A stretch of DNA of 64,000 nucleotides, from assembly GCA_902492105.1 (NCBI GenBank), contig CABUKD010000004.1:4301-68300 (forward strand), read 5' to 3'. The DNA comes from an uncultured Clostridium sp. Its GTDB lineage: Bacteria; Bacillota; Clostridia; TANB77; CAG-508. Shown here piece by piece: positions 21,254-22,802 of the stretch (position 1 is the first letter of the stretch; each line of letters opens with the position of its first letter). The translations under genes were made by a program, and so were the position numbers. The notes beneath the pieces are model-generated. The model was not told the origin of the DNA and ran no database searches. It saw only the letters and a list, made by a program, of their open reading frames with translations.

Positions 21254-22802
21254 TTACATTATGTAAAGTACTGGCCTGGTGGAAAGGTCTTCATCATTAG
21301 CTATTGGAAAACTGCCCAATGTACGGGAAAAAGCAGAAGAGTTTGAATACTCGTAAACGCCTCCACGGTAGGGATGACGACTGTATTCGTTAACTTCTTG
21401 TGTCCATTCATAACAATTTCCTGCAAAATCATAGATATTATTTGCTTTCCAACTTTCGCTATATCCTGCTGTTTGTTTTGTTCCTGCTCCTTCTTCTGGA
21501 TTATCCTCATAATTTCCCCAATTTGTTGAATCTTCTATATCATATCCTGCTTCTGATAACCAATTACATACTTCATCCCATTGGTTTCCATATATCATAG
21601 TTGTTTTTGCTATTATTTCACTTTCTTGTTTTCCTTCATTATTTACTATCTTCATACATCCTGCTTTTAAATTATACCAATTTTGGTTTGTTATTACTAT
21701 TCCATCTTTTTGTACTGTTGGGTTTCCTATTGCTCCGGTTAGTTCATATCTTCCTATATAAAATCCTCCATATTTTTCTATACTATCATGGATTTTTTGA
21801 TATTCTTTCACCATATCTTGTGCATATTCTCCTACACTACTTGCTCCATTTATTAAGCTATAATATTGGGCATCTGTATCATAATCTGTTACTAGTTCTG
21901 GCTCTCTATTGCCAATTCCTCCTGGTACACCTCCTGGTGTTTTGCTATATATATTTGTTGTTACTCCTGTTTCTCCTGATAGTTCAAATGTAAATTTTAT
22001 ATACATTTGTGATAATCTTTCTTCACTTACTGGTATCCATACAAATTCATTATTCGTTCCGTCTTGTTTTATTACAAGGCCTCCTTCTACTGTTTGTTCT
22101 GCTTCTACTGTAGATGCTGTAAATCCTTTTGGCACTGGAACTTTTACTGATGGTATATCTTTTGATGAAAATGCTGTTACCTTATCATTTGTTTCTTTAT
22201 CCCATTTTTCTATTCCACTAGTTGCTTCTGGTATTTTTATTAGTTCTTTTGTCTTATCTGGCATACCAGTAGTAGACATGCTTCCTATTACCATATAATC
22301 TTCATTATTATACTCAAGTGTTAAATAATATTCATTTTTATTATAATCCAATCCTATGCCTGCCAAGCTTGTACTAGCATCTGGTATAATTTCATTTGGT
22401 TTAAATTTAGCTGTATATATATCTAATATTTCTGTCAAAAGAACTCCTTTTTTATCTTCACCTAAAATATATCTTTCTAATATATCTGAAATTTCTATGT
22501 TTCCTGCTCCATTATCATTGATTATATTATTTAATTCATTTACTAAATTTTGTATTTCTTTCTGTTCATTTGTAGTTGCTCCTTCCCACGTGTTTTTTGC
22601 CCCTTGAGCTGTTCTTATTATTCCATCTTCTCCTAGCAACATACTAATAGTTACTCCTGATAAAATTAATAAAATTACAATAGTTACAACCAACGCAATA
22701 AGAGTGATACCTCTTTTTTCCTTTATTTGTTTAAAAGTGTAACTCTCTCTCTCTCTCTCTCTCTCTCTCTACAATTTCAATGTTTTTACGACGTTTTCGC
22801 AT
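21254..22802 (-). CDS. Prepilin-like / FGE-sulfatase (CLec-fold)-type surface protein, paralog of the DGR target; 5' end out of frame because of an (AG)14 tract
   Basis: ATG 22802-22800 sits behind AAGGAG. That frame reads MRKRRKNIEIV(ER)n and then stops at 22733-22731. The long ORF (21254-22693 in the track) continues upstream as ...SYTFKQIKEKRGITLIALVVTIV in another frame. The C-terminus has ...NCYEWTQE...YRGG... like the DGR target. Confidence 0.7.
22743..22770. repeat. Dinucleotide microsatellite (CT)14 on the plus strand, (AG)14 in the gene sense
   Basis: Counted directly: 28 nt of alternating C/T, 30 nt downstream of the ATG of the pilin-like gene. Confidence 0.95.

Follow-up and report, generated by a model that had tools for sequence, protein, structure and literature searches.

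A probable slipped-strand switch at an (AG)n tract in a putative surface-protein gene whose paralogue is the target of a diversity-generating retroelement

A 64,000-nucleotide stretch of the genome of an uncultured Clostridium sp. (contig CABUKD010000004.1, positions 4,301 to 68,300; hereafter the window) carries, at 21254–22802 on the minus strand, a gene that raises a simple question: why should a well-placed start codon lead, through a perfect run of AG dinucleotides, into a stop codon, when a long open reading frame (ORF) lies just beyond it in another frame? An earlier note made from the sequence proposed that this is a phase-variable gene caught in its OFF state, and that a paralogue elsewhere in the window is varied by a diversity-generating retroelement (DGR). 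Our analysis makes it very probable that the gene undergoes classical translational phase variation by slipped-strand mispairing at the (AG)n tract.

Direct reading and Tandem Repeats Finder (period 2, 14.0 copies, 100% matches) bore out the layout described in the note. On the minus strand, an ATG (22800–22802) follows a Shine–Dalgarno sequence, AAGGAG (22812–22817), that lies 9 nt 5′ of it. Ten leader codons, RKRRKNIEIV (22771–22799), come next and then, 30 nt after the ATG, a perfect (AG)14 tract in the gene sense (22743–22770; (CT)14 on the plus strand) that encodes (Glu-Arg)n when it is read. In the window the ATG frame gives MRKRRKNIEIVERERERERELHF, a 23-residue peptide ending at a TAA (22731–22733), which is the stop used when n is 14 or 11. 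The long body ORF (21254–22768; 504 codons plus stop) is out of frame with this ATG and is closed upstream by a TAG (22769–22771) that overlaps the start of the tract; after the TAG it reads (RE)4-S-YTFKQIKEKR-GITLIALVVTIVILLILSGVTI..., that is, (RE)4 S and then YTFKQIKEKRGITLIALVV..., to its stop at 21254. With 14 units the gene is thus OFF in this assembly, as the note had claimed. The expected number of 16-nt AG runs in the window was 0.00 over 100 dinucleotide-preserving shuffles, and (AG)14 is its sole simple-sequence repeat: we found no other di- to octanucleotide repeats in the 64 kb, and no homopolymers of at least 10 A/T or at least 7 G/C. Further upstream, a consensus scan found a promoter-like TTGTAA-17-TAAAAT (22882–22910, minus strand), a match that alone is no better than chance in AT-rich DNA; the AGTTAGTATAAAATAA box does, however, recur ahead of the homologous leader in L002 and L015–L019.

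The note had suggested comparing strains, and the repeat number does indeed vary between them. We compared the window with eight independent human-gut metagenome assemblies from different ENA samples (loci L001 and L003–L009), in which the gene has a common context, with a MurJ-like flippase upstream and PPDK downstream. The eight assemblies are of samples ERZ24773480, ERZ27305355, ERZ27256421, ERZ918203, ERZ918055, ERZ28642994, ERZ24773488 and ERZ28662130. The tract has 10 units in L008, 11 in L001, L006 and L009, 12 in L003 and L004, 13 in L005, and 14 in L007 as in the window, and all three reading frames occur among the nine sequences. The flanks of the tract (35 nt before and 30 nt after) are identical in all nine, and a multiple alignment of the 1549-nt gene shows one single-nucleotide polymorphism (at 21660, in L001) against five tract-length alleles. 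One haplotype of the downstream gene, shared by the window, L001, L004, L005, L006 and L008, carries n = 14, 11, 12, 13, 11 and 10, respectively; on a second haplotype, n = 12 (L003) and n = 14 (L007) are found again. Since the same repeat numbers appear on different haplotypes, slippage has been recurrent and independent. These alignments indicate that the tract changes repeatedly while almost nothing else in the gene changes, and that it is hypervariable among near-identical strains.

ON and OFF alleles both exist in this set. With n = 12 (L003, L004) the ATG opens an ORF of 514 amino acids, the start being that of the ON protein P0122; with n = 10, 11, 13 or 14 (the window and the remaining six assemblies) it yields peptides of 21–25 residues, which end at ...ELHF for n = 11 and n = 14 and at ...VTLLNK for n = 10 and n = 13. 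P0122 (514 amino acids, beginning MRKRRKNIEIVERERERESYTFKQIKEKRGITLIALVV...) is 100% identical to the window's long body ORF over the part that they share. It belongs to the same 90% cluster as P0001/P0121, the OFF-form protein, which gene callers begin at an internal methionine (ATG 22642). The prediction that 12 or 15 units would fuse the ATG to the body is therefore realized in the n = 12 alleles of other samples.

In the mechanism that we favor, slipped-strand mispairing would change the length of (AG)n within the region coding for the charged leader. At n = 9, 12 or 15, all multiples of 3, translation would run through MRKRRKNIEIV(ER)nS-YTFKQIKEKR-GITLIALVV... and the full protein would be made, with the added Glu-Arg pairs falling in a leader of variable length where they would be tolerated. 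At n = 11 or 14, and likewise at n = 10 or 13, translation would stop early, and the gene would be OFF and presumably without a protein product. Such a tract would be expected to switch reversibly and at high frequency within a clone. The locus has the features of a simple-sequence-repeat contingency locus: an uninterrupted in-frame repeat lies between the start and the body, it varies far beyond its surroundings, a change in its length shifts the frame of the body, and both states are found in nature. With five tract lengths, three frames and an ON state at n = 12, the slipped-strand architecture that had been read from a single sequence is well supported.

Is the upstream ATG really the start of this gene? 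Homologous fused leaders in other lineages answer this. The leaders that precede the invariant G-I-T-L of the family are charged and 5 to 46 residues long, and because of that span we expect the insertion of ER repeats to be tolerated; homologues of the window leader include ...KNLEIV (L010), ...KNVEVL (L014) and ...KKLEIV (L015), and an A/G-rich Shine–Dalgarno-like stretch also lies 5′ of the leader ATG in related loci. At L010–L012 (P0134), in another genomic context, the protein begins MNKSSKNLEIV(RE)5-SHSKPIKRKQ-GITL, with n = 15 in frame and a length of 463 amino acids; this is a HiFi/long-read locus at which three assemblers agree on n = 15. L014, from a metagenome-assembled genome classified by GTDB as Bacillota, encodes MNKSSKNVEVLERERELHFKQIKEKR-GITL, with n = 8, in frame by script and again 463 amino acids long. 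A protein search with the leader peptide returned short fragments only and was useful just for P0141, a second allele of the L014 lineage with n = 5, also in frame. From the tract to G-I-T-L, none of the three lineages (the window gene, L010 and L014) contains an ATG, GTG or TTG. Because the fusion of ATG, leader, (AG)n and GITLIALVV is in frame in two other lineages, we take the upstream ATG to be the real start. We also considered that the window ATG and tract might be the dead remnant of a separate small upstream gene, as in L002, and rejected this since the n = 12 alleles and the L010 and L014 fusions show that the ATG is the gene's own start. P0060 was set aside as a candidate OFF allele: it is an internal-methionine call on a contig (L013) that begins just past the tract.

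A strict pattern combining the tract and the N-terminus had no matches in the Joint Genome Institute (JGI) metagenome collection; a relaxed pattern matched 44 metagenome loci, of which we set aside 38, mostly eukaryote-like, as unrelated AG microsatellites. Two patterns run against viral contigs gave no matches, and we thus see no sign of a phage-borne switch.

Several points weigh against phase variation. The tract lengths come from consensus assemblies, mostly short-read, rather than from single reads; the strains are so closely related that an intact ORF is in itself no proof of purifying selection; and the focal gene is ON in only two of its nine alleles, from which it follows that OFF may be the usual state. 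There may also be leaky initiation at an ATT (22699) or a TTG (22693) downstream of an AAGAGG.

Some of these points would also fit a decaying pseudogene, in which the microsatellite drifts neutrally and the ON alleles are functionless accidents: seven of nine alleles are OFF, the likeness of the strains leaves selection on the ORF unproven, and at least 19 contigs have a frameshift in a third family member, probably of the same organism (below). Against this, the tract is uninterrupted in every allele and in three divergent lineages, and L010, L014 and P0141 all keep leader, tract and body fused in frame, in intact 463-residue ORFs. A single haplotype holds both ON and OFF alleles, and the 504 codons of the body carry no other lesion. 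We consider a pseudogene unlikely.

That tract length is irrelevant, either because translation starts downstream (TTG 22693, ATT 22699 or ATG 22642) or because the lengths are assembly or sequencing artefacts, seems to us very unlikely. The AAGAGG lies 10 nt 5′ of the ATT and 16 nt 5′ of the TTG, and the internal-methionine calls at ATG 22642 noted above might seem to favor a downstream start. The TTG, which is the first canonical start 3′ of the tract in the window, and the ATT are nevertheless within the hydrophobic helix, past the G-I-T-L and the charged region of every full-length member. ATG 22642, the next canonical start, lies beyond the helix, and a product begun there would thus lack the membrane segment. 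As for artefacts, the related contig L013 does break exactly at the tract, but tracts of 20–28 nt are well below read length, the n = 15 allele was recovered by three assemblers from HiFi/long-read data, and five lengths in eight samples with the rest of the sequence identical is not an error-like pattern.

Finally, the tract might exert its main effect on transcription, by attenuation, or on mRNA stability, rather than by simple truncation of the protein. Premature stops can also give polarity, and related loci have this cassette as a leader ORF running into an intrinsic terminator. For the window we consider such an effect very unlikely: a terminator scan found no hairpin or terminator between tract and gene, there is no separate start, and the leader is fused directly to the gene, with 31 nt from tract to GGT. 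Slipped-strand translational phase variation is thus the explanation with which we proceed.

Those related loci, all outside the window (L002, L015–L024, L044, L045, L051, L053, L060 and L076), carry the same cassette of Shine–Dalgarno sequence, start codon, leader and (AG)n as a separate small ORF, 35–330 nt 5′ of the start of a family gene; an example is L015 854–1200. In L044 the start is GTG, and a conserved promoter box upstream of the homologous leader, AGTTAGTATAAAATAA, is kept in L002 and L015–L019 only. When n is a multiple of 3, the small ORF runs for 28–45 codons and ends in or just past a strong hairpin with a U-run behind it; read in either of the other frames, it meets a stop 1–31 nt after the tract. 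The hairpins have predicted energies of -11 to -27 kcal/mol (z-scores -2.9 to -9.6), and their stem sequences vary between loci through apparently compensatory changes. At L076 the hairpin and the ATG of the gene are ~35 nt apart, too close for a separate promoter to fit between them. Tract lengths in these loci range from 5 to 19, one locus type having 7, 9, 10, 11, 11 and 13 units, and the read-through frame is found in one of 13 alleles.

Among these, L002 has at 3517–3600 a degenerate leader with a (CA)7 tract and a short (AG)4, on a long-read contig; a G run that differs by 1 nt, perhaps through a long-read error, splits the family gene downstream of it. L015–L024 probably represent a third paralogue of the same organism, since they are found in two of the same samples. 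SpoIIP and PGI flank this third member (L015–L026), which was found in samples that also hold the window gene. At least 19 contigs have a frameshift in its A-rich leader, with one copy of a 7-nt unit, AAAAAGA; in L025 and L026 there are two copies and the leader is intact (L025 263–300 compared with L015 1100–1140). P0124, another protein of the cluster and known by its sequence only, has a longer leader that is in frame. The indel may be either a second, rarer switch or the mark of a decaying copy.

The window's other family member is the DGR target, a paralogue with a plain leader and no repeat (45314–46633, minus strand), 23 kb from the focal gene. Its variable repeat (VR; 45324–45468) pairs with a template repeat (TR; 43021–43165, minus strand) that we identified by repeat search and by adenine-specific TR/VR mismatches. 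Between the TR and the VR lie the reverse transcriptase (RT) gene (43249–44268; Pfam RVT_1), bAvd (44252–44626; Pfam bAvd) and, between the DGR target and bAvd, a small ORF with a MutS_I domain (44623–45120). Across 10 loci from other samples (L027–L036) the TR does not change, and the five VRs recovered each differ from the window VR and from one another at positions of TR adenines: the DGR is genuine and active on its own target in the population. The length of the DGR target varies as well, from 438 to 447 amino acids. Directly 3′ of the target gene there is also a perfect tandem repeat of a 14-nt unit, TGGCGCCACGCTAG, in 4.2 copies (45098–45156).

The focal gene shares the C-type-lectin/FGE fold of such targets and none of their diversification. 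Between its 3′ end and the TR at 43021–43165 only generic E-W-T and R-G-G motif positions align, so no TR-matched VR is present, and its last 400 nt contain no substitutions across the nine sequences, that is, no population variation of the VR kind. The earlier note was thus right that this gene has no TR-like sequence and is not DGR-diversified, and that the two paralogues are varied by different devices: in one, the tract ranges from n = 10 to n = 14 over a constant C-terminus; in the other, the VRs all differ.

What the note said of the relation between the two genes fared less uniformly. The shared 5′ module is real, but its size and identity need correcting: 22711–22517 aligns with 46600–46406 over 195 ungapped nt at 86% identity, where the note had given approximately 170 bp and roughly 88%, and identity falls to ~35% beyond. 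The suggestion that the module reflects recombination between the two window paralogues is not specifically supported, because the modules of the two window genes are 82–91% identical to those of family members from other loci and genomes, a range that includes the 86% between them; in fact, the module of the DGR target matches that of L010 better (91%) than that of the focal gene (86%). Such equal similarity across the family marks a family-wide conserved N-terminal domain and is not evidence of exchange between these two genes. At L014 (3880–5271), an (AG)n leader (n = 8) is joined to a body whose identity with the window DGR target is 65% overall and peaks in the C-terminal two-thirds, which implies that leaders and bodies are shuffled within the family. 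No TR or RT was found near the L014 gene within the 8 kb examined. Somewhere in the family there may be a gene subject to both phase variation and DGR targeting.

Taken together with the leader-ORF loci, this leads us to a wider proposal, which we offer tentatively and regard as somewhat doubtful: that a portable cassette of promoter, leader and (AG)n circulates in a pilin-like/C-type-lectin surface-protein family of gut Bacillota and is used in two ways, as a fused translational switch and as a leader ORF that extends to an intrinsic terminator only at values of n divisible by 3. With leaders and bodies shuffled and some members being DGR targets, ON/OFF switching and DGR hypermutation could then occur together in one lineage, spread over these genes or even in a single one of them. 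If this were true, the leader-ORF form would give repeat-gated attenuation of transcription.

What kind of protein is being switched? The conserved N-terminal module, GITLIALVVTIVILLILSGVTI...NTWEGA (22517–22711, minus strand; shared with the DGR target at 46406–46600), comprises a pilin-like hydrophobic helix and the helix that follows it. Its N-terminal segment reads KR-G-ITLIALVVTIVILLILSGVTI, in which G, I, T and L do not vary among 58 family members. As in type IV pilins, a glycine at -1 precedes a hydrophobic helix of ~20 residues (14–36 in the predicted model). The glutamate at +5 is absent (alanine takes its place), the N_methyl match scores 16.5 bits, below the Pfam cut-off of 21.2, and matches to profiles of solved pilins are weak (E = 0.05–0.14); lacking the glutamate and an above-threshold N_methyl match, the protein is best called pilin-like rather than classed as a pilin. 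Pfam and NCBIfam offered no family for the body of either paralogue, returning the sub-threshold N_methyl match and spurious FliL and dUTPase matches, and a single-sequence search of the PDB gave nothing useful.

We made an AlphaFold model from the 58 family members (mean predicted local distance difference test score (pLDDT) 79.6; predicted template modeling score 0.73). It is predicted to consist of the hydrophobic helix, a long helix of low confidence, a small beta domain and a confidently predicted C-terminal domain. The last of these (21257–22174, minus strand; approximately residues 190–495 of the model, with pLDDT mostly 80–97) is an FGE-sulfatase/C-type-lectin-like domain and is not diversified. 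Foldseek matched it to OvoA, which we take to contain an FGE-sulfatase-type domain, to TaqVP, a Thermus DGR variable protein, and to ToxD, with probabilities of 0.93–1.0, and the family profile weakly matches SUMF2 (E = 0.003) and TvpA. These structure and profile matches agree with the note's claim that the focal gene and the DGR target have the same C-terminal fold type. We infer that the product is a membrane-anchored or secreted surface protein, and its C-terminal domain probably binds a ligand. The resemblance to TaqVP (5VF4) and TvpA (2Y3C) lies in the C-terminal C-type-lectin/FGE fold and in the focal gene's being a paralogue of a verified DGR target; the difference is that the focal gene has no cognate TR and its VR-equivalent region is invariant.

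Phase variation through simple-sequence repeats is textbook biology in mucosal pathogens (Neisseria, Haemophilus, Helicobacter and Campylobacter), and CT repeats occur in several Helicobacter pylori outer-membrane-protein genes, further examples besides oipA being sabA, sabB and hopZ. In H. pylori oipA/hopH, CT dinucleotide repeats lie in the 5′ region coding for the signal sequence (PMC10564699). The window switch has its closest analogue in this oipA type: in both, a CT/AG tract stands just after the start, in the leader or signal coding region of a surface adhesin-type gene, and the repeat number sets the ON/OFF frame and varies by strain. The proteins and organisms are unrelated, however (a Gram-negative pathogen versus an uncultured gut Bacillota), the window leader precedes a pilin-like hydrophobic segment, and the window family includes a DGR target. 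The M.MmyCI methyltransferase of Mycoplasma mycoides subsp. capri has 12 AG repeats in its coding region (PMC3498834) and resembles the window gene in repeat unit, in length, in its low-GC Gram-positive-lineage host and in an OFF frame that ends at a TAA; it is a DNA methyltransferase rather than a surface protein, and its tract is outside any leader peptide.

The leader-ORF loci have a different counterpart. In Streptococcus gallolyticus pil1, phase variation involves GCAGA repeats located in a leader peptide that precedes a terminator (Danne et al. 2014, PMC3894217), and this leader/terminator architecture was shown experimentally (PMC3894217). In the leader-ORF loci, too, the tract would set the length of the leader, and only the long form would reach a terminator 5′ of a surface-appendage gene. 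The differences are that the unit is AG rather than GCAGA, that the downstream genes are others, and that the loci are known here from sequence alone. The window gene itself departs from the pil1 arrangement, as its leader is fused to the gene and there is no separate repeat-bearing leader ORF with a terminator. In the literature on DGRs together with phase variation or simple-sequence repeats, we found no paper linking both in one protein family.

The mechanism, then, is already known; the interest of this locus lies in its uncultured gut Bacillota host, in the ON and OFF population alleles that are already public, and in the pairing with a DGR in one family. To our knowledge, few cases of such phase variation are on record for the dominant bacteria of the human gut, the uncultured spore-forming Bacillota. 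In public metagenomes one and the same gene has ON alleles in some people and OFF alleles in others, which amounts to a natural experiment. With an active DGR target as the paralogue of the focal gene, one family is varied by two unrelated hypermutation devices, which points to strong fluctuating selection on the surface protein; phage, immunoglobulin A or changing ligands are possible sources of it. And because gene callers systematically truncate or split such genes, as P0001/P0121 illustrate with their internal methionine, the true N-termini and the switch are invisible in current annotations.

Two other features of the window deserve mention. Downstream of the focal gene, the gene for a 260-residue lysine-rich membrane protein (20365–21147) is intact in the window, L004–L006, L008 and L009 and frameshifted in L003 and L007, by a 1-nt deletion in an A-rich stretch (around 21012–21042) beside a 3-nt insertion. 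About 4.5 kb from the DGR target, two adjacent plus-strand ORFs (51089–52952) resemble by eye the resolvase domain of a serine recombinase, in the first, and the rest of a large recombinase, in the second, which suggests a mobile element or prophage boundary nearby.

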